A stretch of DNA of 64,000 bases from a virus (lineage: Duplodnaviria; Heunggongvirae; Uroviricota; Caudoviricetes): positions 1 through 64,000 of IMG/VR virus record IMGVR_UViG_2671180676_000004; one strand, written 5' to 3'. This document shows, in pieces, positions 147-41,504 of the stretch (positions are counted from its first letter, which is position 1; each line of letters starts with the position of its first letter). Position numbers and translations under genes: made by a program. The notes under the pieces were generated by a model. It made no database searches, was not told the origin of the DNA, and saw only the letters and a program-made list of their open reading frames with translations.

Positions 147-210
147 AGCCTGCTTCTGTATATATAAATAACTACATATTAATTATTAATATACGGAAGC
201 AGGCTGTTTT
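147..210 (+). terminator. Hairpin H copy 1, intrinsic-terminator-like
   Basis: Arms 147-163 / 190-205 (agcctgcttctgtatat … atatacggaagcaggct) with one T·G wobble, AT-rich loop, then GTTTT. Confidence 0.55.
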
Positions 211-1126: not shown

Positions 1127-1720
1127 ATGACGACGAAGACACCAGCCCGATCGCAAGAAAAAACTCGCAAAAAAGCCAAAAACAAAAATTCTCCCCGCAC
1201 CAATTCCACAACGCCTGTCGTAGAGTTCAATCCCCAGCTTAAAACCGTGAAAATCTTCAGTGATGGCTCTTGCCTTAAAAATCCGGGTGGCCCGGGCGGT
1301 TACGGTATAGTTCTCCAGTATCGTGGTGAGGAACGCGAGTTCTCAGATGGTTTTCATAGCACCACCAATAACCGCATGGAGATGATGGGGGCACTTATCG
1401 GGCTGGAGCGTTTGAAATATCCATGCAACGTTATTTTGCACTCTGATAGCCAGTATCTGAAAAACGGCATGACACAGTGGATGAAATGGTGGAAACGCAA
1501 TGGATGGGTGACTTCTGACAAAAAACCGGTAAAGAATGTTGATCTGTGGAAGCGTCTGGATGAGGCTGCAAGTCGACATAATGTTCGCTGGAAGTGGGTT
1601 AAAGGTCACGCCGGGCATCGTGAAAATGAAATATGTGATCGACTCGCGAAGATCGCAGCTTTTTCCGCAGCAGATATGCCTCACAAGAAAGATATTGGTT
1701 TTGTTTACAACAAGCAGTAA
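1127..1720 (+). CDS. RNase HI-family ribonuclease with basic N-terminal extension
   Basis: Aligns by eye to E. coli RnhA; catalytic D/E/D/D positions retained ([29 protein letters not shown]); SD CAGGAG before ATG 1127. Confidence 0.85.
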
Positions 1721-1737
1721 GTAAGTGTTTACCTATC
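1718..1737. repeat. Motif B copy (taagtaagtgtttacctatc)
   Basis: Near-identical to the copy at 63701-63720. Confidence 0.5.
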
Positions 1738-1865
1738 ATTTTAAATCATGTATCTTATCGGCGTCAGGATGACAATGTGTCGGTAAGACACAGTTCCAGG
1801 ATGGAACGAGAAAGGCGGCTGGCAATCGCCAGCCGCAACTCTTTCTGACACTGGATGGAGTCCAC

Positions 1866-2621: not shown

Positions 2622-2637
2622 GAAAACAACTTGTTTT
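2622..2637 (+). promoter_or_regulatory. Motif A palindrome (gaaaacaacttgtttt)
   Basis: Perfect 7-bp inverted repeat, about 30 nt upstream of ATG 2661. Confidence 0.45.
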
Positions 2638-3350: not shown

Positions 3351-3365
3351 GAAAACAACTTGTTT
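3351..3365 (+). promoter_or_regulatory. Motif A palindrome
   Basis: gaaaacaacttgttt, about 26 nt upstream of ATG 3384. Confidence 0.45.
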
Positions 3366-5545: not shown

Positions 5546-8500
5546 CTATATCTGCCCACCTACTCCTTTGAACTTTTCAATAAACGTGACGATTTTCTGG
5601 AAAACCGTCTGTTTTTTCGTTTTATATTGCGGGTTTAACGGACTAAGTTTTGGTAATGTCTCGTTTAATTCTGTGCCATTTTCGGTGGCGTATTCGCGTT
5701 TTAAAGACGTGCGAATATAGCGTTTCGCCGCCTCTTCATTGAGATTTTCTTCTTTAATCAACGCTTCTGCTTCACGTAGCTGTTCGTGTTGAGCAAAGGT
5801 AAAGAACGCGTCAATGATGCTGGCTTTGTCTGGTAAATCATCCAGGTTCGTTTGCTGAATAAAATCGACCACCAGGCCCTCTTTAGCACGGTTCCCTAGG
5901 CTTGAACGAATTAAGCGTTTGACCTCTTCGATCATTTCGCCCTTGCCTTTATTTTGTCTGTTGTGTTCGAAAATCAGTCCAAGGATATAATCCAGGTTTA
6001 TTTCCTGAGACTTCAGCAAATCGACCTCAAAAACTACGTCATCCCAGTCAGTGGTTGATTTCTCTTTTTTCTCAGCTTCTTTCTCACGGCGCTGCCAGTC
6101 GCGAATATCGTTATAGGCAGAACGATAATCCTGAATCTTGCGATCAGCAGGGAGACGAATTGTTTGCAATTCAGCGAACTTTTCATCATCCACATAATGT
6201 TCTGCTTTGAATTTTTCTACCGCAACAGGATCGCTAAGATCGATTTGTTGCAGGGCTTTTAGCGTGGCAAATTCATCATAGTTTTGCAGGATGTTCTCGG
6301 CACGCAGGTATTCGCCAAACAGTTTAACGAAGTCTTTCTTCTCTTTTTCACTTTCAATACTGGCAGGGTCAGGGAACCGTTGTTCCAGTTCTGAAACTAC
6401 TGCCATAAAGCCGCGTTTAGCTTCACCTGTAGCAGCATCAGTAAAGCCTTCCATATACTCTGCATAACTCTTTTCTAACACTACATTTTTGGTGTTTTTG
6501 TCACCAAACAGCGTTATGGCATCGATGGTTGAGCGTTCCAGATCGCGGAAAGTGACGATATTACCGAAGGTTTTAGTCGCGTCATAAATGCGGTTGGTAC
6601 GGGAAAATGCCTGCATCAGGCCGTGAAAACGCAAGTTTTTATCGACGAATAGCGTGTTTAATGTTGGAGCATCGAAGCCGGTTAAAAACATCCCCACGAC
6701 GATTAACAAGTCAACATCCTGATTTTTAACCCGCTGAGCCAGGTCCCGATAGTAGTTCTGAAAACCCTTGCTATCAGTGCTGAAATTCATTTGAAAATGG
6801 TCGTTATACTCACGAATTGCAGCGTCCAGAAACTCTTTAGCACTGCTGTCCATTGCACTGGTATCAAAAGATTCATCGGATATTTCACCAATGGCATTTT
6901 GTTCTTCATTAGCGGCAAAGGAGAAGATTGTCGCAACACGCAGTGGTTTATAGGTAGCAGATTTATTAGCTGCTTCCTCTTGTAACCGTTTAAACGTCGC
7001 GTAATAGGCTTTCGCGGCATCCACGCTGCTCACTGCCAACATAGCATTAAAACCTTTTGAGCCAGGGAAGGTACGGTGGGTTTTCTGGCGGAAATTATTC
7101 AGAATATATTGCGTGATTTCCTGAATACGCATGGGATGAAGAAACGCCTGCTGATTTTCAGCCGCACTCAGTTTTTTCTCGTCAGTTTCTGTCTCTAAAG
7201 ACTTAAACTGTGGCCGCACATCGTTGTAGTCCACCTTGAATTTGAGCACTTTTTCGTCACGAATCGCATCGGTAATTACATACGAATGCAATTCACGACC
7301 AAATACGCTGGCGGTTGTTTCTGAGCCTAAGGCGTTTTCCGGGAAAATAGGGGTGCCGGTAAAACCAAACTGATAATAACGTTTGAATTTCTTCTTCAGG
7401 TTTTTCTGCGCTTCTCCAAACTGGCTGCGGTGGCATTCATCAAATATAAACACCACTTGCTGATTATATACAGGCAGGTCGCTTTCTGCTTTCATCAGGT
7501 TATTGAGTTTCTGAATAGTAGTGACGATAATTTTGTTATCGTCCTTATCCAGATTTCGTTTAAGGCCTGCGGTATTTTCCGAGCCGTTGACGCTGTCTGG
7601 CGAAAAACGCTGATATTCCTTCATGGTCTGGTAATCGAGGTCTTTCCTGTCGACCACAAAGAAGACTTTATCAATAAAGTCCAGCTCTGTTGCCAGACGC
7701 GCGGCTTTAAAGCTGGTGAGGGTTTTACCAGAACCGGTAGTGTGCCAGATATACCCACCGCTTTCCGGTTTTGACCAGTTCTTCGCTGTAAAGGAACTCT
7801 TAATTTTCCACAGAATGCGCTCGGTGGCGGCAATCTGGTACGGTCGCATCACCAGTAGCGTCTGACTACTGTCAAAAACGCTGTAGTTCACCAGAACATT
7901 CAGCAGAGTATGTTTCTGGAAAAAGGTAGCGGTAAAGTCTTTGAGGTCTTTAATCAGCGTGTTGTCTGATTTCGCCCAATTCATGGTGAAGTCAAAACTG
8001 TTTTTATCGCGCTTTGTGGTGTTGGCAAAATAACGGGTATCAGTGCCGTTGGAAATGACGAACAGCTGCAGATACTTAAACAGGGAATTTTCGCTGTTAA
8101 AACTCTCTTTACTGTAACGATGTATCTGGTTGAAAGCCTCACGAATCGCCACCCCGCGTTTTTTTAGTTCGATTTGCACCAGCGGTAAACCATTAACCAG
8201 GATCGTGACGTCATAACGGTTAGCATGAGAACCCGTCTGTTCAAACTGCTGGATAATCTGCACCTTATTGCGCATGAGATTCTTTTTATCTATCAAATAG
8301 ATGTTCTCAAGTCGCCCGTCGTCAAAAATAAAGTCGCAGATATAGTCGATATGGATTTTACGGGTTTTATCCAGAATACCATCGCTGGGGTTGTCCAGAT
8401 ACTGCTCCGTGAAGCGCCGCCACTCGCTGTCATTAAACATCACACCATTGAGGCTCTGAAGCTGTTCCCGAACATTGGACAGCATTGCCGACTGTGATTT

Positions 8501-8662
8501 TACGGAAATAAATTCATAACCCTGATTCCGCAGGTCCTGAATCAGTTCACGTTCCAGGTCCGATTCGCTCTGGTAGCTGTCGCTTGTTTGCTCAGCTTTG
8601 ATGTACTTATCAAGGACGATAAAGTTATTGGATTCAGCAATGGTGTGTGTTTGATGAGTCAT
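5546..8662 (-). CDS. hsdR: Type I restriction enzyme R subunit
   Basis: 1038 aa; SF2 motifs TGSGKT and DECH ([10 protein letters not shown]); directly downstream of hsdM-hsdS. Confidence 0.9.
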
Positions 8663-8784
8663 AGCGCATCCTTTGTGCCGCCTGGCAAGAGCCGGAAGGG
8701 CGTTAAGAGTGACTTCCGGCGCGTAAAAAAATAGTCTATATACTGACCGGGTGTTAAGGTGGCCCGATCGGTAGCAATGGTCAA

Positions 8785-10023
8785 TTAATTACTGACAGTT
8801 TCAGGTTTCGGGAAACTGAACAGTAAATCACGGTAGTATTCGTATTGTTTCTGGCGCAACTCGATTTCACGCGGGAGACCTTCGGTGATGGAGTTGGTCA
8901 GGGTGTCGAATTTATCGAGCAGAGCAGATATTCGCTCTTGTTTCTGTTTATCAGGCAATGGCACTGGTAATGTTTTTATAATATCTGCATTCAAGTTACT
9001 GACCGACCCGCTATTGATTTTACTTTCCCAATAATTTTTCACCTTTTTTGATGAAAGATAGTGATACAGATAATCAGCATTTAATTTTTCACCAAAATTG
9101 CTGATTGATGCCCATCCATCATGGATAGCTCCGGTTATCCTTAAAATATATGGTCTGCCAAAGCTCATAGAGTTAGAAATGACGAAATCACCGGGGTTCA
9201 AGATTCGCGATTTTTGGGCACCCTCTGCAGTTATTTTTTGTAAGGTTTTGTCAATGTATTTAGAGCCGGGGATAGTATCTCCGATTTTAATCCATGGGAT
9301 ACCATTTCCTTGTTCAGTAAGATAATTAACAATTGGCCTGGGGGATGCCCCACGTTGTATTTTGGCTACTTCTCCCAATGCCTTCCACTCAACCTCACCC
9401 TCTTTAAAACTCAGCAACTGGTCGCGATAGTAGTTGTACTGTTTTTTACGCATGTTAAGCTCAGCGGTAAGCTCAGCGGTAAGTGCAGTAAACTTATCCA
9501 GAATCCGAACAATTTCAGACTGGATGGCAAGGGATTTTCCCGGGGCGCTGGGACAAGGGATGGGTATTTGATAGTTTAAAATTGCATCTTTACTGCCTCG
9601 AGGCATCTTTGCCCCTTTAGCGTGCTGCATACTGTAAGAAAAAAATGAATCCGACGATAATGCATAGTAGAGATATTCTGGACTAATAATTTTTTTACAG
9701 TCTGCTAAAATGCGTATAGCAAGGACATCACCACTGCACCCGCCATTATTCTCCGCCATCCAAACTTTCTTTAAATATGGGCGAATATTACCTAAAAGAA
9801 TATCACCTGGCTCATAGGCAGTTAAACGTGCCGTATTAGGCTGATAGGTGGCGTCAATGCGACCGCCTTTATCAGCAAGGAGATTATCAACGCCAACGAA
9901 TGAAGTGGCATCAAGTTTATCAGCATCAACTTTGGTTGTTGAATACCCGGCGATATCGCCCACTGCTTTCCACTCAACCTCAACCCCATCCAGCAATTTT
10001 TCCAGATAACTCAACTCGCTCAT
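8785..10023 (-). CDS. hsdS: Type I restriction-modification specificity subunit
   Basis: 412 aa with two target-recognition halves, each ending in a conserved coiled spacer (…[16 protein letters not shown] / …[16 protein letters not shown]); overlaps hsdM by 4 nt. Confidence 0.85.
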
Positions 10024-11582
10024 TTCTGCACCTCGCAGCCTTCAATTTCAGCCACAATCGCATCAATATCTTTACGCAACTGGTCGATTTTGCTGACCGT
10101 GGTTTTCAGCTCTGCATTCAACTCAGCGATATCGATAATTTCGCGAGTATCTTTCACTTCAACATAGCTGCTCACCGACAGGTTATAGTCATTAGCAACA
10201 ACAGTCTCAAACGCAACAGATTTCGCCAGATGAGCAACATCTTCCTTGCTGGCAAATACCTGCATAATTTTTTCTATATGGGCATCGGTCAGAATGTTGT
10301 TGTTAGTCTCTTTTTTGAACAGTTCGCTGGCATCAATAAACTGAACTTTGGTATCCGTTTTATGTTTAGACAGCACCAGAATATTGACGGCAATGGTGGT
10401 GCCAAAGAACAGGTTCGGTGCCAGTGAAATCACGGTTTCGACATAGTTATTGTCAACCAGATACTGACGGATTTTCTGCTCCGCGCCGCCACGGTAAAAA
10501 ATGCCCGGGAAGCAGACAATCGCAGCACGACCTTTGGCAGAAAGATAGTTCAGCGCATGTAATACAAACGCAAAGTCAGCTTTGGATTTGGGGGCCAGAA
10601 CGCCAGCCGGGGCAAAACGTTCATCGTTAATCAGCGTCGGGTCATCGCTGCCAATCCATTTCACCGAATACGGCGGGTTAGAAACGATGGCATCAAACGG
10701 TTTTTCATCTCTGAAGTGCGGCTCAGTCAGCGTATTGCCCAGCTTGATATCAAACTTGTCGTAGTTGATGTTGTGCAAAAACATGTTCATACGCGCCAGG
10801 TTATAGGTCGTATGGTTGATCTCCTGACCGAAAAAGCCTTCTTCGATGATGTGGTCATCGAACTGCTTTTTCGCCTGCAACAACAGCGAACCGGAACCTG
10901 CTGCCGGGTCGTAGATTTTGTTAACGTGGGTCTGGCCGTGCATTGCCAATTGTGCAATCAGCTTAGAGACGTGCTGCGGTGTAAAGAACTCGCCGCCTGA
11001 CTTACCAGCATTCGCGGCATAGTTAGAAATCAGGAACTCATAGGCATCGCCGAACAGGTCAATCTGATGTTCGTTGAAGTCACCAAGTTTTAACCCTTCA
11101 ACCCCTTTCAGAACCGCAGCCAGGCGGGCATTTTTATCTTTAACGGTGTTACCCAGGCGGTTACTGGTGGTATCGAAATCAGCAAACAAACCTTTGATGT
11201 CAGCTTCTGAAGGATAACCGTAAGCAGAACTTTCGATAGCAACGAAGATGCTGTTTAAATCTGCGTTCAGTCTGTCATTGGTATTTGCTTTCGCCGCTAC
11301 GTTGCAGAAAAGCTGACTGGGGTAGATGAAGTAGCCTTTAGTTTTGATGGCATCGTCTTTAATGTCATCAGTAATTACGCTGTCATCCAGTTTCGCATAA
11401 CAGATACTGTCATCACCGGCTTCAATATAGCTGGAAAAATTTTCGCTGATAAAACGGTAGAAAAGTGCGCCCAGAACGTATTGCTTAAAATCCCATCCAT
11501 CGACCGAACCCCTGACATCGTTAGCAATTTGCCAGATTTGACGATGAAGCTCTGCACGTTGTTGAATACTTGTCATTTTCAT
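10020..11582 (-). CDS. hsdM: Type I N6-adenine DNA methyltransferase subunit
   Basis: 520 aa; SAM motif [10 protein letters not shown] and catalytic NPPYS. Confidence 0.9.
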
Positions 11583-12708: not shown

Positions 12709-12972
12709 ATGGGATTTAATATGAACGAATGGAACATAGCAGCCAAAAGCCAGGAAGAAAGGAATAAAGTTAACGTTGACCTGGCTGCCAGGGGGGTTGC
12801 CTACAAAGAGCGATTGAACATACCCGTCATAGCGGAACAGGTAGCCCGTGAGCAACCTGAGAACCTGCGCACCTATTTCATGGAACGGCTACGGCACTAC
12901 CGGCAGTTAAGCCTCCTGCTGCCAAAAGGAAACGATCCGGTATATCAGAAAGAAGATATAGCCAAAAAATAA
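12709..12972 (+). CDS. Hypothetical protein (83-87 aa)
   Basis: ORF; alternative ATG at 12721; immediately upstream of the UmuD'-like gene. Confidence 0.4.
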
Positions 12973-13070: not shown

Positions 13071-13460
13071 ATGGGCTTCCCTTCTCCTGCGGCGGATTAT
13101 GCTGAGAGTCGTATTTCTCTTGATCAGCAGATAATTAGACATCCTTCAGCGACCTACTTCTTGAGGGCAGCTGATAGTCATCATCGTGAGGGAATATTAC
13201 AGGGTGCATTGCTGGTGGTCGATTCCTCACTTACCCCGGTTGATGGTTCTCTGCTTGTATGCGCTCTGGATGGGGAATATCGCGTAAAAAGATACCGGAA
13301 GTATCCACGTCAGCATCTGGAGGATTTGAGAACCGGTAAGAAGGAAGCATTGCCAAAGGATGACGATGGATGCACGGGCAGCAATGCCGTGTTTGGTGTG
13401 ATCACTCACATTATCAACGACGCAAGAAGTGGCGAGTTTGATGATTGTCCCGTGATGTAG
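13071..13460 (+). CDS. UmuD'-like S24-peptidase domain protein
   Basis: Begins MGFPSPAADY…HPSATYF, matching UmuD from its Cys-Gly autocleavage site onward; Ser and Lys positions kept (ADSH…VKRY); no umuC partner. Confidence 0.6.
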   Translation: MGFPSPAADYAESRISLDQQIIRHPSATYFLRAADSHHREGILQGALLVVDSSLTPVDGSLLVCALDGEYRVKRYRKYPRQHLEDLRTGKKEALPKDDDGCTGSNAVFGVITHIINDARSGEFDDCPVM

Positions 13461-13496
13461 GAGAACTGATTAGGCGGTGCAATGCACCGCCTTTTA

Positions 13497-14597
13497 TCAC
13501 ACTGCGCGGAATGCGATCTCGCCAGGTATTACTTCGCCTTGCCAATACATTTGGGCAGCAACGCGATCTGCGAGGTCACGATAAATAGCCGTAAATTCGC
13601 TATCTGGACGACTAATAACGGTTGGTGTTCCGTTATCCAGATCTTCACGAAGAGAGATATGAAGTGGCATTTGGCCTAACAACTGCGTGTTGTATTTCTC
13701 GGCCAGTTTCTGTGCGCCACCGGTGCCAAAAATTGGCTCGTGATGACCGCAGTTACTGCAAATATGCACACTCATGTTTTCGACGATACCCAGTACCGGC
13801 ACTTCGACTTTTTCGAACATCACAATGCCTTTCTTCGCATCGATCAGCGCGATGTCTTGCGGCGTAGTTACCACAACCGCACCAGTTACAGGAATGTTCT
13901 GCGCCAGCGTCAACTGAATATCACCAGTGCCCGGCGGCATATCGAGAACGAGATAGTCCAGATCAGGCCATAGAGTTTCCTGCAACATCTGCATCAGCGC
14001 CTTGCTGGCCATCGGTCCACGCCACACCATTGCATTGTCGTCGGTGACCAGATAACCAATAGAGTTGGTTGCCAGGCCATGAGACATGATAGGTGCCATG
14101 TGAGTACCGTCCGGTGAGGTTGGACGTTGGTTTTCCGCGCCCAGCATGGTTGGAATTGATGGACCATAGATATCGGCATCCAAAATACCAACTTTCGCAC
14201 CTTCAGCAGCCAACGCCAGTGCCAGGTTTACCGCCGTGGAGGATTTACCCACGCCGCCCTTGCCTGAGCTGACGGCGATAATGTTCTTAACGCCATTAAT
14301 GCCTGGTTGGTTTTTGACGCGCTTAAGCGTGGCAATGTTGTACGACAGCTTCCAGTCAATAGCCTTTGCGCCAGTGATACGGAGCAGATCACCACTACAT
14401 TGCTCTTTCAGGTCTTCAAAAGGCTTATTCCACACGAAAGGCATGATTAGTTCGACATGCAGTGTGTCATCCATCAACGCAACATGGTGTAACGCTTTAA
14501 GCGTAGTCAGGTTGTGTTTCAGGGTTGGGTGCTGAAAATTAGCCAGCGTACCGGCTACCATTGCTCTCAGGGCATCCGGCGATTTGGACTCGCTCAT
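13497..14597 (-). CDS. apbC: Fe-S cluster carrier ATPase Mrp/ApbC
   Basis: 366 aa; P-loop SSGKGGVGKSST; MinD/Mrp family; divergent from metG as in E. coli. Confidence 0.95.
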   Translation of the reverse strand: MSESKSPDALRAMVAGTLANFQHPTLKHNLTTLKALHHVALMDDTLHVELIMPFVWNKPFEDLKEQCSGDLLRITGAKAIDWKLSYNIATLKRVKNQPGINGVKNIIAVSSGKGGVGKSSTAVNLALALAAEGAKVGILDADIYGPSIPTMLGAENQRPTSPDGTHMAPIMSHGLATNSIGYLVTDDNAMVWRGPMASKALMQMLQETLWPDLDYLVLDMPPGTGDIQLTLAQNIPVTGAVVVTTPQDIALIDAKKGIVMFEKVEVPVLGIVENMSVHICSNCGHHEPIFGTGGAQKLAEKYNTQLLGQMPLHISLREDLDNGTPTVISRPDSEFTAIYRDLADRVAAQMYWQGEVIPGEIAFRAV

Positions 14598-14754
14598 CCC
14601 GTCTCCTTTATTTTAATTTGCGCAATTGTCGCCTTGTAGTGTACTCCAGCTACGACATTTAATCATTTATGAGAAATGCTGTTATCACATGGCAGACATA
14701 AGGCCATTTTGTTACTATCAAGCCCCTTTTCACTACAAAGAAGTAATGCCTACT

Positions 14755-16788
14755 ATGACCCAAGTCGCGAAGAAAATTCTGGTGACGTGCGCGCTGCCGT
14801 ACGCTAACGGCTCAATCCACCTCGGCCATATGCTGGAGCACATCCAGGCTGATGTCTGGGTTCGTTACCAGCGAATGCGCGGCCACGAGGTTAATTTCAT
14901 CTGTGCCGACGATGCCCACGGTACGCCGATCATGCTGAAAGCACAGCAGCTTGGTATCACACCGGAGCAGATGATTGGCGAAATGAGTCAGGAACACCAG
15001 ACTGATTTCGCAGGCTTTAACATCAGCTATGACAACTATCACTCGACGCACAGCGAAGAGAACCGTCAGTTGTCTGAGCTTATCTATACTCGCCTGAAAG
15101 AGAACGGTTTTATTAAAAACCGCACTATCTCTCAGTTGTACGACCCGGAAAAAGGCATGTTCCTGCCGGATCGTTTTGTAAAAGGCACCTGCCCGAAATG
15201 TAAAGCGCCAGATCAATACGGCGATAACTGTGAAGTCTGCGGCGCAACATATAGCCCGACTGAATTGATCGAGCCGAAATCGGTGGTTTCTGGCGCTACC
15301 CCGGTAATGCGTGATTCCGAACACTTCTTCTTTGATCTACCTTCTTTCAGCGAAATGTTGCAGGCATGGACCCGCAGCGGCGCGTTGCAGGAGCAGGTGG
15401 CGAACAAAATGCAGGAATGGTTTGAATCCGGCCTGCAACAGTGGGATATATCCCGCGATGCGCCTTACTTCGGTTTTGAAATTCCGAACGCGCCGGGCAA
15501 ATATTTCTACGTCTGGCTGGACGCGCCGATTGGCTACATGGGTTCCTTCAAGAATCTGTGCGACAAGCGCGGCGATACCACCAGCTTCGATGAATACTGG
15601 AAGAAAGACTCCACCGCCGAGCTGTACCACTTCATCGGTAAAGATATTGTTTACTTCCACAGCCTGTTCTGGCCTGCCATGCTGGAAGGCAGCAACTTCC
15701 GCAAGCCGACCAACCTGTTTGTTCATGGCTATGTGACGGTGAACGGCGCGAAGATGTCCAAGTCTCGCGGCACCTTTATTAAAGCCAGCACCTGGCTGAA
15801 TCATTTTGACGCTGACAGCCTGCGTTACTACTACACTGCGAAACTCTCTTCGCGTATTGATGATATCGATCTCAACCTGGAGGATTTCGTTCAGCGTGTG
15901 AATGCCGATATCGTTAACAAAGTGGTTAACCTGGCGTCCCGTAACGCTGGCTTTATCAATAAGCGTTTTGACGGTGTGCTGGCAGGCGAACTGGCTGACC
16001 CGCAACTGTATAAAACCTTCACTGATGCTGCTGAAGTGATTGGTGAAGCATGGGAAAGCCGCGAATTTGGTAAAGCTATCCGTGAAATCATGGCATTGGC
16101 TGACCTGGCTAACCGCTATGTCGATGAACAGGCTCCGTGGGTGGTGGCGAAGCAGGAAGGACGCGATGCCGATCTGCAGGCGATTTGCTCTATGGGCATT
16201 AACCTGTTCCGCGTGCTGATGACGTACCTGAAGCCGGTACTGCCGAAACTGACTGAACGTGCAGAAGCATTCCTGAATACAGAACTGACCTGGGATGGTA
16301 TCCAGCAACCGCTGCTGGGCCATAAAGTGAATCCGTTCAAGGCACTGTATAACCGCATCGATATGAAGCAGGTTGAAGCACTGGTGGAAGCATCCAAAGA
16401 AGAAGTGAAAGCCACAGCCGCACCGGTAACTGGCCCACTGGCTGACGACCCGATTCAGGAAACTATCACCTTTGACGACTTCGCCAAAGTTGACCTGCGC
16501 GTGGCGCTGATTGAAAACGCAGAGTTTGTAGAAGGTTCTGACAAACTGCTTCGCCTGACGCTGGATCTCGGTGGTGAAAAGCGTAATGTCTTCTCAGGCA
16601 TCCGTTCCGCTTATCCAGATCCACAGGCACTGATTGGTCGTCACACCATTATGGTGGCTAACCTGGCACCACGTAAAATGCGCTTCGGTATCTCTGAAGG
16701 CATGGTGATGGCTGCTGGCCCCGGCGGGAAAGATATCTTCCTGTTAAGCCCGGATGCTGGTGCTAAACCTGGCCACCAGGTTAAGTAA
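14755..16788 (+). CDS. metG: Methionyl-tRNA synthetase
   Basis: 677 aa from [11 protein letters not shown]; class I HIGH (HLGH) and KMSKS motifs; zinc knuckle CPKC…CEVCG; C-terminal tRNA-binding domain. Confidence 0.97.
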
Positions 16789-16810
16789 TTAAACAACCTC
16801 TCTTCGCAAT

Positions 16811-16836
16811 GCCCGGCAACACGCCGGGCATTTTCA
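16811..16836 (+). terminator. Intrinsic terminator of metG
   Basis: gcccggc-aacac-gccgggc followed by TTTT. Confidence 0.8.
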
Positions 16837-16871
16837 TATAGACACAATCCCTTCTGATTTACACAGTACCT

Positions 16872-16886
16872 AAAACAATTTGTTTT
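16872..16886 (+). promoter_or_regulatory. Motif A palindrome
   Basis: aaaacaatttgtttt; first of two tandem copies downstream of metG. Confidence 0.45.
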
Positions 16887-16921: not shown

Positions 16922-16937
16922 GAAAACAACTTGTTTT
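16922..16937 (+). promoter_or_regulatory. Motif A palindrome
   Basis: gaaaacaacttgtttt, 13 nt before ATG 16950. Confidence 0.45.
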
Positions 16938-16949
16938 GGAGTGGTTGAA

Positions 16950-19728: not shown

Positions 19729-19743
19729 GAAAACAATTTGTTT
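19729..19743 (+). promoter_or_regulatory. Motif A palindrome
   Basis: gaaaacaatttgttt, 13 nt before ATG 19756. Confidence 0.45.
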
Positions 19744-19755
19744 AAGGATTGCTTT

Positions 19756-20085
19756 ATGTTTGCAAATATCGACATCAACCAAATCAAGAAATTAACTCAA
19801 AAAGAGTTTGATCAGTTTTATGAGTTAGAAGGTTGGTCTTCCACTCTGATCAATTCGCGGTGGGTGCTTGAGCTGATGACTCGTGATGACGCACCTGCTT
19901 TGATGATTTGCGACATGGGTGAAGATGCTGACTTTATGGATATGAGCGAATTTTGTGTGGACACATACAACCGCAGCCAGAAGTACTACTTCACATGCGA
20001 TAGCGAAAATGACGTGATTTCTAAGGTCTATCTTCACCTCGTCCAGCATTGGGACGTTCAGGAGTTTCTTGAAGTATTCGAGTAA
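19756..20085 (+). CDS. Hypothetical protein (109 aa)
   Basis: ATG 19756; track start 19738 is TTG. Confidence 0.5.
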   Translation: MFANIDINQIKKLTQKEFDQFYELEGWSSTLINSRWVLELMTRDDAPALMICDMGEDADFMDMSEFCVDTYNRSQKYYFTCDSENDVISKVYLHLVQHWDVQEFLEVFE

Positions 20086-20212
20086 CCCCAACCAAAGCCA
20101 GCAATGCTGGCTTAATTTCTCTATAGCCGCAGGGAGGAACCTGCATATCGATCATGCACCTGATCATTATGCTTTGTAGCCGTTTTCTTACTGGTATTAT
20201 TTACGCCATTGA

Positions 20213-20227
20213 GAAAACAAGTTGTTT
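20213..20227 (+). promoter_or_regulatory. Motif A palindrome
   Basis: gaaaacaagttgttt, 12 nt before ATG 20239. Confidence 0.45.
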
Positions 20228-20238
20228 ACGGAGTTGTG

Positions 20239-20550
20239 ATGAAAAAATCATTGGTTCTTGGTCTGGACAAAGACCAGAAGAGAAAAGAGAAGCCTGCACT
20301 GGTTGCTCAATTAACTTTGCTAGACATCGTTGCCAATGGAACTTCTATTCGTCTGTTCCGTGAAACAGCGGTGTCTTTCGATAAAAACACCTTTACTCGT
20401 TATGTAATGAATGTTCGTCGCCAGCGTGGAAAAGGATGGGTGGCATTTCAAAGAATGTGGCCGGAACATCAGCTCGAACTGGCCTTGATGGAAGTTAACC
20501 GCGTGGCCCAGCAAGAAATTCAGAGAGCATCAGTGATGGCAATAGCCTGA
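20239..20550 (+). CDS. Hypothetical protein (103 aa)
   Basis: ATG 20239 with SD GGAG. Confidence 0.5.
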   Translation: MKKSLVLGLDKDQKRKEKPALVAQLTLLDIVANGTSIRLFRETAVSFDKNTFTRYVMNVRRQRGKGWVAFQRMWPEHQLELALMEVNRVAQQEIQRASVMAIA

Positions 20551-20584
20551 TAATGTGCAAGTGGTAATTAGTCGACAGTACGAC

Positions 20585-20612
20585 AGCCCCGCCATCCTTA
20601 CGGGGCTTTTTT
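20585..20612 (+). terminator. Intrinsic terminator
   Basis: agccccg-ccatcctta-cggggct + TTTTTT. Confidence 0.8.
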
Positions 20613-20618
20613 GTATTG

Positions 20619-20634
20619 TAAGTACATACTTACG
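20619..20634. repeat. Motif B palindrome (gtaagtacatacttac)
   Basis: 7-bp arms GTAAGTA/TACTTAC upstream of gene 20677. Confidence 0.5.
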
Positions 20635-20676
20635 ATCATAGAATATAAAAATAACCAATACACTACGGAGAGTGAA

Positions 20677-21072
20677 ATGACCGTTAAACGCGAAAAACTG
20701 ACAGTTGATGTTTACTATGCCTCTGAAACCGCCGAAGGTAAGAATGTGGCAAAAATCACCGTTGTTACGTACAACACCGAAACTGGTGCCGAAGTCCAGG
20801 CCAGTACGATCGTGCGTAAAGGTGACGCCTCCGGCGGCGAGTACGCGACTCAATACCAGTCCATTCTCGATGCAACTGACCCGCTGCTGCTGAAAATCGA
20901 GAACTACTTCCGCCAGGTTGATGAAGAGGTGTTTGAAACCATGATGAATATGGTTAACACCGTATTCGCCTCCAGCCTGAACACCAGCACCACCTGGATT
21001 GGCCAGTACGGTCTGCGCATTACCTCTGGCATTCCTGCCGACACCTTAATCCCTGAAAGCGTATTCGCTTAA
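20677..21072 (+). CDS. Hypothetical protein (131 aa)
   Basis: ATG 20677 with SD GGAG; bracketed by intrinsic terminators. Confidence 0.5.
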   Translation: MTVKREKLTVDVYYASETAEGKNVAKITVVTYNTETGAEVQASTIVRKGDASGGEYATQYQSILDATDPLLLKIENYFRQVDEEVFETMMNMVNTVFASSLNTSTTWIGQYGLRITSGIPADTLIPESVFA

Positions 21073-21081
21073 TCCTCTTTA

Positions 21082-21108
21082 AATGGCGCGTAAACCGCGC
21101 CATTTTAT
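21082..21108 (+). terminator. Intrinsic terminator
   Basis: aatggcgcg-taaac-cgcgccatt + TTATTA. Confidence 0.7.
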
Positions 21109-21118
21109 TATGCCCGAT

Positions 21119-21131
21119 AACAATTTGTTTT
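21119..21131 (+). promoter_or_regulatory. Motif A variant (aacaatttgtttt)
   Basis: Upstream of ATG 21154/21190. Confidence 0.35.
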
Positions 21132-21189
21132 CTGCCTTATCAGATTTGTGAAAATGATTTCACTGAAGCAACTTAATAAGGAAACCATC

Positions 21190-21564
21190 ATGGGACTTGA
21201 TATCTATATCGAGACACAGCCTAAAAACGATCTGAATAACGAGGCATCCAGAAAGCAGGTTGCTTACTTCCGTAAGTTCAATGCGCTCGTTGGGTGGATG
21301 GAGCGCAACGTAGGTGAAGTCGAAAATTGTGAGCTTTTAGAATTAACGATGAATGACATTTGTCTTCTGAAAGCTCATTTGATGCACATAAACGAAAGCA
21401 ATTGCGAAGAGTACTTGCCTACTCGGGAAGGTTTTTTCTTCGGCAGTCAGGAGTACGACGAAGGTTACTGGCATGACGTGGATAAGCTGAAAAAACTTGT
21501 GGAAGACCTGATCAGGAACCACGACTTTCACAATAACAGACTGACCTTCTGCGCCTGGTGGTAA
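21190..21564 (+). CDS. Hypothetical protein (124 aa)
   Basis: ATG 21190 with SD AAGGA; in-frame alternative ATG 21154 lacks an SD. Confidence 0.45.
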   Translation: MGLDIYIETQPKNDLNNEASRKQVAYFRKFNALVGWMERNVGEVENCELLELTMNDICLLKAHLMHINESNCEEYLPTREGFFFGSQEYDEGYWHDVDKLKKLVEDLIRNHDFHNNRLTFCAWW

Positions 21565-21566
21565 AT

Positions 21567-21710
21567 ATGGGCGATTTCAAGAAACGCCTGAAGGAAAGAG
21601 CCGAGATGGTCAGAAAGCAAAACGCCTCTTCTGTCATCAGATACGCAAGGCAGTTTAGTCGCAACAACAAATCAGTTGAGGAAAAGATCCTTAGCGTAAT
21701 CGGTCGATAA
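21567..21710 (+). CDS. Possible coupled small ORF (47 aa)
   Basis: ATG 2 nt after upstream stop (MGDFKKRLKERAEMVRKQNASS…); followed by hairpin 21716-21741. Confidence 0.25.
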   Translation: MGDFKKRLKERAEMVRKQNASSVIRYARQFSRNNKSVEEKILSVIGR

Positions 21711-21715
21711 TTATT

Positions 21716-21741
21716 AAGGCCATCAGCATTGATGGCCTTAA
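21716..21741. terminator. Perfect 8-bp-stem hairpin (ggccatca-gcat-tgatggcc)
   Basis: Perfect stem but no T-run, so terminator function uncertain. Confidence 0.35.
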
Positions 21742-21764
21742 ATGACCATCCTGTTTCCCGCAGG

Positions 21765-21850
21765 CTAAAAACACCAACCTCTTACCTCCAGGCAACCGAC
21801 AAACCCACCTGTTCCCGTCCGGCTACCGCAACTTTCCACTTTGACGCCTT
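21765..21850. repeat. Repeat related to 18590-18680
   Basis: accaacctctt…caggc(a/t)accg(a)ca(a)acccacct… shared between the two loci. Confidence 0.45.
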
Positions 21851-21879
21851 ATTCGTACAACGATAATTAACACCAATAA

Positions 21880-21893
21880 GAAAACAATTTGTT
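21880..21893 (+). promoter_or_regulatory. Motif A palindrome
   Basis: gaaaacaatttgtt, 22 nt before ATG 21915. Confidence 0.45.
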
Positions 21894-21914
21894 ATTTACG
21901 ATAAGGAATTAATC

Positions 21915-30994: not shown

Positions 30995-31035
30995 GAAAAC
31001 AAGTTGGTTAGAAAATGCAGTAAACAAGTTGTTTT
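30995..31035 (+). promoter_or_regulatory. Tandem motif A copies upstream of the small terminase gene
   Basis: gaaaacaagttgg and aaacaagttgtttt, followed by palindrome agagcgc-atggac-gcgctct. Confidence 0.4.
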
Positions 31036-31074: not shown

Positions 31075-31707
31075 ATGACGGTCGAAAAAGACGAGGTAAA
31101 AACTCGCCTGACACCAGCGGAGTGGGCCGAAGCTGAAGCCAAATGGACGTCAGGCGAATATACACTCTCAAAGCTGGAGGAAGAGTACGGCATTCGTCGT
31201 GAAACACTCTCCAGACATTTCAAAAAGCGAGGATTAGAGAAAGGCGCGGACTCTGTTGGGAAGATGGTTCGTGAGTCTCTTAAATCTGACGCAGAGCTTC
31301 GCGCTAAAGCCCGTGCGGAAAAGATAGAAGAACGTCGTACACGTTATGACGGCTGGGCGTATGCGTTGGGGCAGATGGTGATGGTCGAAGTCACTACGGC
31401 CAAACGTGAGGGTAAGCCTTTAGGGGCGATTGAGGATTCTCTCAAGAGCTTACAGAGAGCCAGTAATACCCTTGCAAAATGCTTTGAAGTTTCGTCCAAA
31501 GCATTGGGCATGGATCATGCGGAAAATGACGAGGAAGAAATTCCGAACCTGGTATTTGGTGAGCTTACGCCTTCCCAGGTGGCGAAATTACGTCAGGAAG
31601 ACGACGAGCCTGAAATCATCGATGACGAATTGCTTGAGACGTTGGAAGAAGAAGCTCTAAGCGAATTTGATGCGACAGATGATGGAAGTGAAGGGGAGGA
31701 CGAATAA
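31075..31707 (+). CDS. Terminase small subunit (putative)
   Basis: 210 aa directly upstream of and overlapping TerL; acidic C-terminus. Confidence 0.55.
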   Translation: MTVEKDEVKTRLTPAEWAEAEAKWTSGEYTLSKLEEEYGIRRETLSRHFKKRGLEKGADSVGKMVRESLKSDAELRAKARAEKIEERRTRYDGWAYALGQMVMVEVTTAKREGKPLGAIEDSLKSLQRASNTLAKCFEVSSKALGMDHAENDEEEIPNLVFGELTPSQVAKLRQEDDEPEIIDDELLETLEEEALSEFDATDDGSEGEDE

Positions 31708-32963
31708 TGGCAATCCCGTCCTCGCTCAGTCTTGTGCAACTGCATTCTGGACAGATGAAAGTCTTCCAGTCTCCGCATCGATTTAAAGTTGTTTGTGCTG
31801 GTCGACGCTGGGGAAAATCCCGGTTGTCGATCTCCACTATTATTCGTGCGGCGGCAAAGGAAAAAAAGCAAAGGGTCTGGTATGTCGCTCCTACTTACCA
31901 GATGGCTCGCCAGATTTTGTGGGACGATCTACAGGAAGTTCTGCCTCGTAAGTGGGTTAGGAAAAAGAACGACACCACGATGACAATCGTGTTGAAGAAC
32001 GGTTCGGAGATCGCCCTCAAAGGTGCTGATAAGCCTGACACTCTGCGCGGCGTAGCGTTGCATTTTGTAGTGCTTGATGAATTTCAGGATATGAAGGCTG
32101 ACACCTGGTACAAGGTGTTACGACCTACTCTTTCATCGACACGCGGCGGTGCACTGATCATTGGTACGCCAAAAGGTTTCTCGGAATTTCACAAACTGTG
32201 GACTATAGGCCAGAACGTAGAGCTGCAAAGAAAGGGACAGTGGAAGAGCTGGCAGTTTGTAACTGCCGATTCTCCGTTTGTGCCTACGGCGGAAATTGAA
32301 GCTGCTAAGAACGATATGGACCCGAAATCGTTCGCTCAGGAGTACCTGGCGAGCTTTGAGAACATGTCCGGGCGCGTTTACTACCCGTTCGATCGTAACG
32401 TGCATGTAAAACCGCTTCAGTTCAACCCTCGGTTGCCTATATGGGTAGGGCAGGACTTCAACATTGACCCGATGTCTTCAGTAATTTTGCAACCTCAGCC
32501 AAATGGTGAGCTATGGGCAATTGATGAATTGGTGCTCTTTTCCTCTAACACGGCAGAGGTTTGTGATGAGCTTGAGAGACGCTTCTGGCGCTGGAAATCA
32601 CAGATAACGGTATTTCCAGATCCGGCAGGTGCTTATCGCCAACATGCTCGCGGGGAGTCTGACGTCGACATATTCAAAGAGAAGGGATTCTTACGTGTCG
32701 ATTATTCGAAAAAGCACCCGCCAATTGCGGATCGTGTTAATGCTGTTAACCGAATGCTGATGACCGCATCTGGAGATATCCGGTTGTATATCGATCCGAA
32801 GTGCAAGCATTTGATTGATTCACTGGAAAAAGTCATCTACAAGCCTGGAACACGAGATATGGATAAGACAGGTGGCATTGAGCATAGTGCAGACGCATTG
32901 GGCTATCCAGTACATCGTAGGTATCCAGTCAAAAACCGTGTTATTCTTGGTGGTTCTCGATAG
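31707..32963 (+). CDS. Terminase large subunit
   Basis: Walker A-like VVCAGRRWGKS; C-terminal acidic nuclease-type segment. Confidence 0.85.
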   Translation: MAIPSSLSLVQLHSGQMKVFQSPHRFKVVCAGRRWGKSRLSISTIIRAAAKEKKQRVWYVAPTYQMARQILWDDLQEVLPRKWVRKKNDTTMTIVLKNGSEIALKGADKPDTLRGVALHFVVLDEFQDMKADTWYKVLRPTLSSTRGGALIIGTPKGFSEFHKLWTIGQNVELQRKGQWKSWQFVTADSPFVPTAEIEAAKNDMDPKSFAQEYLASFENMSGRVYYPFDRNVHVKPLQFNPRLPIWVGQDFNIDPMSSVILQPQPNGELWAIDELVLFSSNTAEVCDELERRFWRWKSQITVFPDPAGAYRQHARGESDVDIFKEKGFLRVDYSKKHPPIADRVNAVNRMLMTASGDIRLYIDPKCKHLIDSLEKVIYKPGTRDMDKTGGIEHSADALGYPVHRRYPVKNRVILGGSR

Positions 32964-32980
32964 GTAAGTAATTATCTAAG
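32961..32980. repeat. Motif B copy (taggtaagtaattatctaag)
   Basis: TerL/portal junction. Confidence 0.45.
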
Positions 32981-32989
32981 GTTATTCAA

Positions 32990-34564
32990 ATGGAATTGAA
33001 CGACAAACAAATTAAGGATCTGGTGGCGCGACGCCACCCGGAATACGAAAAGAAAAAAGAACATTGGGACTTCCTCGCCAGCACTTACGCTGGCGGGCGT
33101 GGTTGGTTTACAGACAATATCTTTCGTTACTTTAAAGAGGGAGATCAGGAGTTTAAGGAGCGAGTTGAACGTGCTTATCGCTTCAACCACACTCGTGAGG
33201 TGGTAAACCTCATCAACAAATATCTCTTTAAAGAAGACATTCATAGAAATATCGAAGAGGCACCAGAGCAGATCCGCAATTTCTGGAAACGTGCGACTCG
33301 CCAGAATGCCTCTATTGACTCATTTATGGCCGCTATTGATTTGCAGTCGTCTATTTACGGTCGCATATGGGTTGTTGTCGATAGCACGATGAGTGGTGAT
33401 GTTGAGTCAGTAGCTGACGAGAAAAAGAAAGATGCTCGCGCCTACGCCTACTGGATTTCACCTCAGCAAATGCTGGATGTGGCATGGGACGACGACGGGA
33501 ATATGTTGTGGGCGTTAATTGTGGAAGTCGCTCGTGATGACGCAGATCCTTTTACTTCTACAGGTCAGGAATACCAACGTTATCGTCTGTGGACACAAAA
33601 CGAGTGGTATCTGTTCCGTGAGGAAGTGAAGAAGGGCGCTGGTGGAGCAGGTCGCCGTCAGGCAAAAGTTATTTTAGAGGATAGCGGTGAGCATAATCTC
33701 GGCGTAGTTCCTGTGTTTCCTGTTGATTGTATTGGAGAAAGTGAATCACCGTATTTCAGCCCATCGTTGATCGATGATATCGCTTATCTTGATCGTGCGG
33801 TTGCAAACTATCTGTCAAACCTTGATGCCATTATTCAGGATCAGACATTTAGCCAGTTGGCTATACCGGTACAGTCGCTTTTACCTGGTGATGAAAACCA
33901 CACTAAAGTGCTTGAAATGGGCACAAAGCGAGTCTTCACCTACGATTCTGAAGGTGGAAACCAGCCGTTTTATCTGTCACCAGACCCGAAACAAGCTCAG
34001 ATGATCATCACTACGATTAAGACGGTGATTAACGAAATCTACCATTCAGTTGGTGTAGCTGGTGAGCGAACGAAGCAGGACAACGCACAGGGAATCGATA
34101 ATTCATCTGGTGCCGCAAAAATGTATGACTTCCAGCGTGTAAATAGCTTGCTTGTCACAAAAGCAGAGCGTCTGGAAAGGGCTGAACGCCAAATCATGCT
34201 ACTGGTTGCGAAATGGATGGGGGTAGATCTGGACGAAGACCACTCTTTAATTGCGTATCCAGAAAGTTTCGATATTCGTGGCCTTACTGATGAATTTTCT
34301 GTTGCCGAGAAACTGTCATTACTTCAGGCACCGGACTCTGTACGTCGTCACCAGATGGAAATGCTTATTGAGAAGATTTTCCCGAACATTACTGAGGCGA
34401 TGAAAAAGGAATTTGATAAAGATCTCTTGAATTTTCCTCCAAAAAATGATCTAAATACCCTTGAAAATAAGTCAGTACTTACTTATGATCGTGGTGCAGC
34501 CCAAGAAAGCGGGCAAGATCAACCCCGAGGGAATGGGGACTCATCTACTCAAGAGAACGAGTGA
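32990..34564 (+). CDS. Portal protein
   Basis: 524 aa immediately after TerL; acidic C-terminal tail. Confidence 0.75.
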   Translation: MELNDKQIKDLVARRHPEYEKKKEHWDFLASTYAGGRGWFTDNIFRYFKEGDQEFKERVERAYRFNHTREVVNLINKYLFKEDIHRNIEEAPEQIRNFWKRATRQNASIDSFMAAIDLQSSIYGRIWVVVDSTMSGDVESVADEKKKDARAYAYWISPQQMLDVAWDDDGNMLWALIVEVARDDADPFTSTGQEYQRYRLWTQNEWYLFREEVKKGAGGAGRRQAKVILEDSGEHNLGVVPVFPVDCIGESESPYFSPSLIDDIAYLDRAVANYLSNLDAIIQDQTFSQLAIPVQSLLPGDENHTKVLEMGTKRVFTYDSEGGNQPFYLSPDPKQAQMIITTIKTVINEIYHSVGVAGERTKQDNAQGIDNSSGAAKMYDFQRVNSLLVTKAERLERAERQIMLLVAKWMGVDLDEDHSLIAYPESFDIRGLTDEFSVAEKLSLLQAPDSVRRHQMEMLIEKIFPNITEAMKKEFDKDLLNFPPKNDLNTLENKSVLTYDRGAAQESGQDQPRGNGDSSTQENE

Positions 34565-34585
34565 TAAGTAACAAAGGGAATTTTT

Positions 34586-35473: not shown

Positions 35474-35498
35474 CATCTAAATCAAAGGGAATTGATAG

Positions 35499-36374: not shown

Positions 36375-36384
36375 TCAGTGTAGT

Positions 36385-36400
36385 AGATAAGTAGTTATCT
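36385..36400. repeat. Motif B-like palindrome (agataagtagttatct)
   Basis: Capsid/decoration junction. Confidence 0.35.
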
Positions 36401-36407
36401 ATGTTAA

Positions 36408-36436
36408 AGGGTGGGCTATACGCCCACCCTTTTTGT
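36408..36436 (+). terminator. Intrinsic terminator after the major capsid gene
   Basis: agggtgggc-tatac-gcccaccct + TTTTGT. Confidence 0.85.
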
Positions 36437-36447
36437 AGGAGCGAGAA

Positions 36448-37368: not shown

Positions 37369-37412
37369 CCGATATTGGGCGGCTTTCGCCGCCCAAGTGG
37401 AGAGAAAGCGTT

Positions 37413-38680: not shown

Positions 38681-38759
38681 CGCCAGTCGCATTATTTACT
38701 TTTGGTCGAAAGGTTTTTTGGCCAGTAATGAGAGCGACCGACAACAACAGGGAGAGAGC

Positions 38760-39568: not shown

Positions 39569-39569
39569 T

Positions 39570-39953: not shown

Positions 39954-39960
39954 CTCAATT

Positions 39961-39978
39961 GGTAAGTATATACTTACT
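39961..39978. repeat. Motif B perfect palindrome (ggtaagtatatacttact)
   Basis: GTAAGTATATACTTAC is a perfect 16-bp palindrome; upstream of the major tail gene. Confidence 0.5.
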
Positions 39979-40027
39979 ATTAGCGCAATGAATGCGTAGA
40001 ATTAACGGAAAAAGGAGTTTTCCATCA

Positions 40028-40774: not shown

Positions 40775-40829
40775 TCAGTAATTAAGCAGAGGCTCAGGAT
40801 GAGCCTCTCTTTTAAAAGGATTTTAACCA

Positions 40830-41497: not shown

Positions 41498-41504
41498 CAA
41501 GGGA

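Follow-up and report, generated by a model that had tools for sequence, protein, structure and literature searches.

An additional apbC-metG cassette in an exchangeable slot of a probable SSU5-like phage-plasmid of Escherichia coli

Results

apbC and metG lie between arms of SSU5-like backbone

The window analysed here is a 64,000-nucleotide (nt) stretch of DNA (positions 1 to 64,000 of IMG/VR virus record IMGVR_UViG_2671180676_000004) in which apbC (mrp) and metG lie side by side between two arms that share the same motif families. We consider it very probable that the window belongs to an E. coli phage-plasmid of the SSU5 supergroup with a captured extra apbC-metG pair (hereafter the cassette), of the type represented by pUTAK-6-1, Cyrano/pLF82 and Shigella sonnei p38. 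The original prediction had proposed that one mobile element carries or has captured the two genes, that two related elements inserted on either side of them, or that an element was split by rearrangement. Colinearity of the window with a single circular plasmid and synteny of both arms in SSU5 bear out the first of these proposals. The prediction had neither identified the element as a phage-plasmid nor noted that a metG capture of this kind had been published.

pUTAK-6-1, a circular plasmid of 111,466 bp from bovine E. coli, is 100% identical to bases 13000-17500 of the window. Colinearity was compared over two stretches, bases 21-37500 (99.98% identity, 6 mismatches) and bases 39001-64000 (100% identity), and both are colinear. 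Furthermore, four phage records are 96-98% identical to bases 13000-17500 (Cyrano, 97.8%; the other three, 96-97%). The pUTAK-6-1 record is annotated with large terminase, portal, major capsid and tape measure genes, a partition gene for a ParA-type ATPase lies inside the window (60504-61172), and RepA of Cyrano (CYRAN_63) is encoded in the part of Cyrano beyond the window. Of 5426 complete E. coli genomes, 237 carry the terminase and portal genes of the element, at 245 places that all lie on plasmids and never on a chromosome. Cyrano is an SSU5-like phage-plasmid that produces virions (siphovirus particles), is present at about 5.5 copies per cell and shows 81% identity over 65% of SSU5 (PMC9928086). 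The element would be a temperate siphophage maintained as a low-copy circular plasmid.

The left arm (window 1-5500) matches SSU5 78172-82972 and the right arm (window 16789-23000) matches SSU5 88315-95656, in the order and orientation seen in the window and with about 68-78% nt identity. SSU5 has unrelated genes between these arms and lacks humD, apbC and metG. Since the arms are syntenic in a phage-plasmid without the cassette, both are backbone of one element, which disposes of two related elements on either side of the genes or of an element split by rearrangement. A resident chromosomal locus flanked in one of these ways, or a chromosome-plasmid assembly chimera, is extremely improbable: some IMG/VR scaffolds do join K-12-like yeh-mrp-metG to phage-plasmid DNA, but these joins look like scaffold gaps, whereas the same junctions as in the window recur in 177 finished plasmid records and 4 phage records. 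Moreover, the phage-plasmid allele has diverged by 6% (metG) and 18% (apbC) from the chromosomal copy, which every genome retains, and the contiguity of the arms in SSU5 also stands against a resident locus.

The joined scaffolds include IMGVR_UViG_2671181056_000013 (1-21051) and IMGVR_UViG_2740892421_000017, in which K-12-like yeh-mrp-metG (97-99.6%) is joined to phage-plasmid humD-apbC-metG and the right flank. Of the chromosome/phage-plasmid joins, two coincide with single N characters and a third with a 10-nt stretch outside the sequences compared; two gap-free IMG/VR pieces change between chromosomal and phage-plasmid type within metG. The joined scaffolds may be real recombinants, tandem arrays or short-read chimeras. 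As evidence of integration or of tandem arrays they were set aside, because joins on N or on a short gap look like scaffold gaps.

The cassette occupies a slot with flush boundaries

Alignment to related genomes, which the original prediction had named as the way to find the boundaries, placed them precisely. Homology to the K-12 chromosome is limited to 13501-16789, a segment bounded by the stop codons of the two genes (88.4% identity). In a cassette-less E. coli phage-plasmid of 106 kb, NZ_CP141793, the match to the window ends at the humD stop codon (13460) and resumes at 16873; a DUF4145 gene with its own terminator takes the place of apbC-metG there. These comparisons delimit an exchangeable slot, 13461-16872, between the P1-like humD and a DUF5983 gene (ATG at 16950), with a cassette of about 3.4 kb that has a terminator-like hairpin at both ends. 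In K-12 the neighbours of apbC-metG are yehE and yehF; the earlier remark that neither flank resembles K-12 was therefore correct.

The slot (13461-16872) was found to contain no transposase or integrase open reading frame (ORF) and no end of an insertion sequence (IS), and its two edges share no direct or inverted repeat. Capture by a transposon, an IS or an integron was rejected for lack of a transposase or integrase, of terminal repeats and of a target-site duplication at the slot edges. A copy of the palindrome called motif B below, TAAAACAATTTGTTTTC (16871-16887), lies exactly on the right junction. Illegitimate or short-homology recombination fits these observations, because the edges are flush with both stop codons and the right edge falls on a palindrome of the element. 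The cassette would have been captured in this way and would then have spread via recombination in the conserved flanks.

A junction-like sequence (CCTAAA..TTGTTTTCT) is also found 40-50 nt 3' of chromosomal metG in Escherichia, and such sequences hint at short-homology recombination without proving it. The chromosomes of K-12 and of Escherichia sp. E1V33 carry CCTAAAGTTGTTT(T/A)C just 3' of metG, the K-12 copy lying about 46-62 nt after the metG stop codon. This Escherichia sequence resembles the right-junction sequence CCTAAAACAATTTGTTTTCT (window 16866-16890), and a TTGTTTTC-type sequence is present at the equivalent place 3' of chromosomal metG in Lelliottia, Huaxiibacter and Klebsiella grimontii. 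The resemblance may reflect microhomology used in the capture, or may be a coincidence.

Both cassette genes are intact and under purifying selection

The two genes had been described as standard housekeeping genes, a description that their intact ORFs and full domain sets uphold. ApbC contains a full-length PF10609 domain (NUBPL/ParA-type, positions 2-245 of 246, E-value 2.4e-102), and its translation keeps the P-loop GKGGVGKS (deviant Walker A) and CSNC (CxxC). For metG, the start codon is the ATG at 14755, from which the N-terminus is identical to that of K-12 MetG; the mechanical ORF list had given a TTG at 14626. The methionyl-tRNA synthetase (MetRS) has the domains PF09334 (tRNA-synt_1g), PF19303 (Anticodon_3) and PF01588 (C-terminal tRNA_bind), together with intact HLGH (at 22) and KMSKS (at 333) motifs and the zinc knuckles CPKC (at 146) and CEVC (at 159). 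It differs from K-12 MetRS at 9-10 residues (98.7% identity), and each substituted residue is common among 75 chromosomal orthologues. Both genes are thus predicted to encode ordinary, functional proteins.

Compared with K-12, apbC is 82% identical in nucleotides and 94.5% in amino acids (aa), and metG is 94.0% identical in nucleotides; the ratio of nonsynonymous to synonymous substitution rates (dN/dS) is 0.023 for each. Against Escherichia, Citrobacter and Salmonella copies the ratio is 0.013-0.031 for both genes, similar to that of chromosomal orthologue pairs (0.006-0.036). Both cassette genes are under strong purifying selection, with a dN/dS of about 0.02.

In the E. coli phage-plasmid NZ_CP048306.1 (77588-80491), the match to metG is in two pieces that lie about 870 bp too far apart, and an 'HD domain-containing protein' is annotated under the match. 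The plasmid copy of metG thus seems to be interrupted by an insertion.

The two genes have diverged to different extents

Neighbour-joining trees group both phage-plasmid genes with Escherichia. metG falls inside the genus on a short branch, whereas a very long branch leads to apbC, which is placed as sister to the genus. Accordingly different are the synonymous distances: dS between the phage-plasmid and K-12 metG is 0.30, comparable to that between E. coli and Escherichia sp. E1V33 (0.28), while apbC is 82% identical to both Escherichia and Citrobacter with a dS of 1.4-1.7, against 0.58 between K-12 and E1V33 apbC. Sampled chromosomal E. coli metG alleles are 93.4-94.2% identical to the phage-plasmid allele, with none closer among the matches listed. 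Identity to K-12 rises from about 56% to 97% within 50 nt 5' of the metG start codon. Identity to Escherichia is 89-91% over the 47 nt that lead up to the metG ATG; the remaining intergenic sequence matches Citrobacter best (77-78%) and K-12 poorly.

The 49 lineage-specific changes in apbC comprise 30 GC-to-AT and 9 AT-to-GC changes, and the G+C content at its third codon positions (GC3) is 0.54, compared with 0.60-0.68 in chromosomes. Differences among three phage-plasmid copies are clustered, with 20 sites within 319 bp in Cyrano apbC. Clean gene-conversion tracts from a K-12-like chromosome were considered and rejected, since the clustered tracts between phage-plasmid copies are not K-12-identical. 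The long-branch apbC, the metG nested in Escherichia and the patchy polymorphism among phage-plasmid copies may together reflect repeated exchange of metG alleles between phage-plasmids and Escherichia chromosomes. From these sequence comparisons we infer an old capture followed by later allele exchange, chiefly in metG.

Most E. coli elements of this type carry the cassette

With at least 80% of the query covered, the cassette was found in 209 complete E. coli genomes; set against the 237 backbone carriers, this means that about 88% of the E. coli elements of this type carry it. It was also found in 177 PLSDB plasmids, S. sonnei included, and in 34 IMG/VR loci. Among complete E. coli genomes metG occurs at 5424 chromosomal and 220 plasmid places, and every genome retains the chromosomal gene. 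Within the E. coli lineage of this element, the cassette is close to fixation.

It is improbable that the cassette is a neutral hitch-hiker, that is, a piece of chromosome acquired by chance and without a selected function. Such a piece would agree with the lack of mobile-element machinery or of an evident functional tie to the neighbouring genes, and with the AT-biased drift in apbC. However, dN/dS is 0.02 although dS is 0.3-1.5 from every chromosomal copy, both ORFs are intact in all copies examined, most E. coli carriers have kept the pair, and a phenotype has been published for S. sonnei, as far as the summary cited below reports it.

Two palindromes and a hairpin punctuate the phage-plasmid

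The original prediction had placed motif A, motif B and hairpin H on both sides of apbC-metG (left copies at 147, 1718, 2622 and 3351). All were recovered, and far above chance. The motif B palindrome, GAAAACAA-N-TTGTTT, gave 24 strand-hits with at most 2 mismatches where 1.46 were expected; copies lie left (2622, 3351) and right (16871, 16922, 19729, 20213, 21116, 21880, 30995, 31020, 60454) of the cassette. Motif A, TAAGTA-NN-TACTTA, gave 19 hits against 1.83 expected, with right copies at 20619, 27673, 32965, 34468, 36388, 39963, 46464, 53387, 57860 and 63705. It occurs in intergenic gaps throughout, the late operon included, and is similarly specific to the SSU5 family. At 1 mismatch or fewer, the cassette contains no copy of either palindrome.

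Motif B is present at 13 sites per 19 kb in SSU5 and at 13 per 13.7 kb in the cassette-less relative, and is also kept in the rest of Cyrano. In contrast, 783 kb of enterobacterial chromosomal loci contain just 3 copies of motif B and 4 of motif A, compared with 9-13 per 14-64 kb of phage-plasmid DNA, where the palindromes are about 100-fold denser. Thus the flanks are phage-plasmid DNA and not conserved chromosomal backbone with motifs spread genome-wide, the outcome that would have overturned the original prediction.

The consensus of 25 motif B sites, CcTTtTct..t.G..atAaTaAcaCcAataAGAAAACAA.TTGTTTAa, includes a -10-like GATAAT, often with TGn before it, 13 nt 5' of the palindrome, and a ribosome-binding site follows 8-35 nt 3'. 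In a second class of sites the palindrome comes straight after a terminator and 5' of the same -10 element; both classes are found at 16879/16930, 51 bp apart. Motif B precedes small early-region genes, cobT, nrdB, parA, a helicase gene and the first ORF of the late (terminase) operon. These positions suggest that motif B is probably the operator of a global regulator encoded by the element and acting at extended -10 promoters. A role for motif B as an RNA hairpin is unlikely, given that it has six mostly A-U pairs and a 3-nt loop, while its symmetry on DNA reaches 8-1-8. It was also considered as an operator used by the lysogeny repressor in lytic growth only, and this was rejected, as it precedes parA too and is absent from the intergenic region between the Cyrano repressor and cro-like genes. 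A literature search for the 13-nt motif B sequences returned no match.

Hairpin H is conserved, lies at operon ends, is followed by a T-run in 2 of 3 copies, and looks like a terminator. The three motif families are the phage-plasmid's own punctuation, with roles that we infer.

In Cyrano, the immunity-like intergenic region between the repressor gene CYRAN_45 and CYRAN_46 (locus positions 12600-12800) contains GGTAAG/CTTACC inverted repeats, e.g. GGTAAGTGCTTACC, and a 21-nt tandem repeat. The inverted repeats share the GTAAG half-site with motif A at a different spacing, and may be the operators of the repressor.

The window is distinct from pUTAK-6-1 itself: bases 1-20 are unrelated, and single-base differences occur at 5339, 16889, 17337, 19426, 19737 and 21823. 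Position 19737 is the centre base of a motif B copy, and 16889 is 2 nt 3' of another.

Discussion

How the cassette may act, and for whom

Because both cassette genes are predicted to be functional and are retained by selection, a lysogen would have the chromosomal metG plus one extra metG per phage-plasmid copy. These extra copies would be expressed from the genes' own signals, outside the motif-marked transcription units, and the cassette would be a 'moron' (a prophage gene expressed autonomously during lysogeny) with an intergenic control region and terminators of its own. CYRAN_99, the apbC orthologue of Cyrano, is listed as a moron, 9-fold above prophage background in the lysogen; MetRS is absent from that list (PMC9928086). 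As the enzyme is wild-type-like, any effect of MetRS would be one of dosage and would scale with phage-plasmid copy number. Extra and variable MetRS dosage would create an antibiotic-surviving sub-population, a phenotype taken from the literature: according to the summary in PMC12452169, Tam et al. (doi 10.1101/2024.10.27.24316207) report that multi- and variable-copy phage-plasmid metG in S. sonnei leads to an antimicrobial-surviving sub-population predisposed to cephalosporin resistance. Heterogeneity driven by copy number has been described for another phage-plasmid family (bioRxiv 10.64898/2026.08.19.745698).

The cassette could instead serve chiefly the phage, with extra MetRS (charging of initiator and elongator tRNA-Met) and ApbC (iron-sulfur, Fe-S, delivery) supporting the lytic burst and antibiotic survival as a side effect. 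We regard this as rather unlikely, though still a live explanation, and one that is compatible with the dosage effect and does not exclude it. The element has many replication and nucleotide-metabolism genes of its own and three tRNA genes (Cyrano annotation), and near-fixation in the E. coli lineage under strong purifying selection would suit a benefit to the phage. On the other hand, the cassette lacks the element's motifs and retains a bacterial control region, apbC is expressed in the uninduced lysogen, and both SSU5 and NZ_CP141793, with DUF4145 in the slot, manage without it.

Several observations weigh against the main reading, that of a phage-plasmid with a captured cassette acting through MetRS dosage. 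Nothing in the sequence explains tolerance from extra wild-type MetRS. A strict sigma-70 consensus scan of the apbC/metG intergenic region detected no promoter, and a sigma-70 consensus scan of the motif B sites was likewise negative; by eye, many of the latter have a TGn-GATAAT extended -10 without a -35, which such a scan cannot score. The presence of motif B before the parA partition operon excludes a simple lytic-only operator. Finally, the link to pWPMR2, the metG-bearing phage-plasmid of S. sonnei, is drawn from a secondary summary and from the 98% identity between the cassettes of the window and of S. sonnei p38. An old capture from the Escherichia stem, with genes evolving at two speeds and repeated metG exchange between phage-plasmids and chromosomes, combined with an undescribed SSU5-wide regulatory code of two palindromes and a hairpin, is a tentative proposal that we hold to be possible rather than probable.

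Significance

The presence of apbC-metG on an SSU5-like phage-plasmid is already known: public phage records annotate the pair, and its clinical relevance has been published. Novelty in this respect is low, because the phage-plasmid metG of pWPMR2 in S. sonnei has already been published as a driver of antimicrobial survival. What may be new are the two-speed evolution of the cassette, the anatomy of the slot and the family-wide motif code. A housekeeping aminoacyl-tRNA synthetase (aaRS) at variable dosage on a transmissible phage-plasmid would be a route to antibiotic survival invisible to resistance-gene screens, a point already made for S. sonnei, and about 4% of complete E. coli genomes carry the cassette. 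Our analysis adds the slot and the flush position of its boundaries, the wild-type-like character of the enzyme, strong purifying selection acting on apbC in addition to metG, and near-fixation in the E. coli lineage. Furthermore, the motif families of the element offer handles for studying regulation in SSU5-like phage-plasmids.

Features of the window and neighbouring genes

Table 1. Coordinates of features in the window.
Feature	Position	Strand	Remarks
hairpin H, ~58 nt	147..205, 30903-30959, 63559-63612	.	folding z-scores -5.3 to -7.5; -14 to -20 kcal/mol
motif A, degenerate (2 mismatches), at 1718	1717..1739	.	only left copy given; 3' of RNase H gene
motif B	2622..2636	.	left arm, 5' of terB-like gene (ATG 2661)
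motif B	3351..3365	.	left arm, 5' of ORF at 3384
hsdR, hsdS, hsdM (complete type I restriction-modification)	5546..11582	-	annotation of near-identical plasmid; variable cargo between left arm and hot/humD
hot (DNA polymerase III theta homologue, P1-like)	12709..12972	+	PF06440, E-value 2.7e-31; annotation
humD (UmuD'-like S24 peptidase, P1-derived)	13071..13460	+	PF00717; conserved left neighbour of slot
left slot edge	13461..13496	.	hairpin AGGCGGTGCAATGCACCGCC then TTTT; can end humD, and apbC from the other side
apbC (mrp), Fe-S cluster carrier P-loop NTPase, phage-plasmid allele	13497..14597	-	intact ORF, 366 codons/aa
apbC/metG divergent intergenic region	14598..14754	.	came in with the genes; presumed to hold their promoters
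metG, full-length class I methionyl-tRNA synthetase, phage-plasmid allele	14755..16788	+	677 codons/aa; Pfam domains and intact motifs
right slot edge	16789..16872	.	includes metG terminator-like hairpin 16808-16835
motif B	16922..16936	.	14 nt 5' of DUF5983 gene (ATG 16950); GATAAT at 16905-16910
motif B, four copies (19729, 20213, 21116, 21880)	19729..21894	.	each directly 5' of a small right-arm gene; most after a terminator hairpin
motif B pair, 25 bp apart	30995..31034	.	5' of ORF 31075-31707 preceding large terminase gene; late operon start
phage structural module	31707..46076	+	large terminase 31707, portal 32990, major capsid 35499, tape measure 41484; annotation
motif B	60454..60468	.	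5' of parA-type partition gene (60504-61172)

The region between the arms, at about 5.5-16.9 kb of the window, is by comparison with related elements a plasticity zone that holds the type I restriction-modification genes, hot, humD and the cassette. The hsdRSM position is occupied by other genes in Cyrano, S. sonnei p38 and SSU5. humD is about 86-87% identical in nucleotides to humD of P1, P7 and D6, and is present in the cassette-less relative NZ_CP141793. Taken together, hot and humD (12709-13460) are about 86-87% identical to phage P1, a sign that the P1 and SSU5 groups of phage-plasmids have exchanged genes.

The ORF at 24762-25364 (-) encodes a full-length FljA-type 'repressor of phase-1 flagellin' (PF03614, E-value 2.4e-84), recorded as a hypothetical protein in the plasmid record. 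A possible role is lysogenic conversion, with host flagellin switched off; a literature search found nothing linking fljA to SSU5, pHCM2 or phage-plasmids.

None of the E. coli or Shigella relatives examined has a gene annotated across the roughly 1.5 kb at 18193-19756, yet long blocks of this sequence are invariant between E. coli phage-plasmids and SSU5. At 18440-19100 the top strand is G-poor and CA-rich (GC skew -0.33) with several repeat families, and a G-rich stretch with about six GGGAAACGG-like units follows. This region could encode a long non-coding RNA, or could be an iteron/origin field or a set of centromere-like sites. Rfam gave no match on the whole window (gathering thresholds) or on 18100-19800 (E-value mode), and a tRNA scan was also empty. 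A tandem unit of about 30 nt (ACCaACCTCTT....CAGGCTACCG) is present three times at 18591-18687 and again at 21739-21832, 3.1 kb apart, and a GGGGAACGGC...GGGAAACGG block is duplicated 3.2 kb apart, at 19302-19338 and 22486-22522.

Comparison with known systems

Like the window, pWPMR2 of S. sonnei is an SSU5-type phage-plasmid with an additional metG. It has been placed in the SSU5 supergroup, and pWPMR2-like elements have been reported in E. coli clonal complexes CC131, CC23 and CC73 (bioRxiv 10.1101/2025.09.12.675607). Those elements were reported without detected defence systems (bioRxiv 10.1101/2025.09.12.675607), whereas the element in the window carries type I restriction-modification. 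S. sonnei p38 (NZ_CP099775) has a cassette 98.0% identical to that of the window in the same slot; left of humD, p38 has ISEcp1-blaCTX-M-15 where the window has type I restriction-modification and hot.

Cyrano (pLF82, OV696614) is 97-98% identical to the window over both arms and the cassette. At the same position its annotation reads 'MetRS' and 'MinD', the latter for the apbC gene. It differs in having Eae- and Ea22-like genes left of humD instead of hsdRMS, and in a patch of about 320 bp in apbC with 20 differing sites. The type members SSU5 and pHCM2 share with the window the backbone synteny and the same two palindromic motif families. They differ in lacking humD, apbC and metG, in the other genes between their arms, and in an identity of about 68-78% in nucleotides.

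The cassette may also be akin to phage 'morons', autonomous transcription units with their own terminators inside a prophage. The scattered operator-like motifs of the window resemble the dispersed C1 repressor operators of P1; unlike the asymmetric operators of P1, these candidate operators are palindromic, and they are unrelated in sequence. Plasmid- or transposon-borne aaRS genes of the mupA/ileS2 type give inhibitor resistance through divergent, inhibitor-insensitive enzymes. As in those systems, the window has a second aaRS gene on a mobile element; its MetRS is instead 98.7% identical to that of the host and has no unusual residues.

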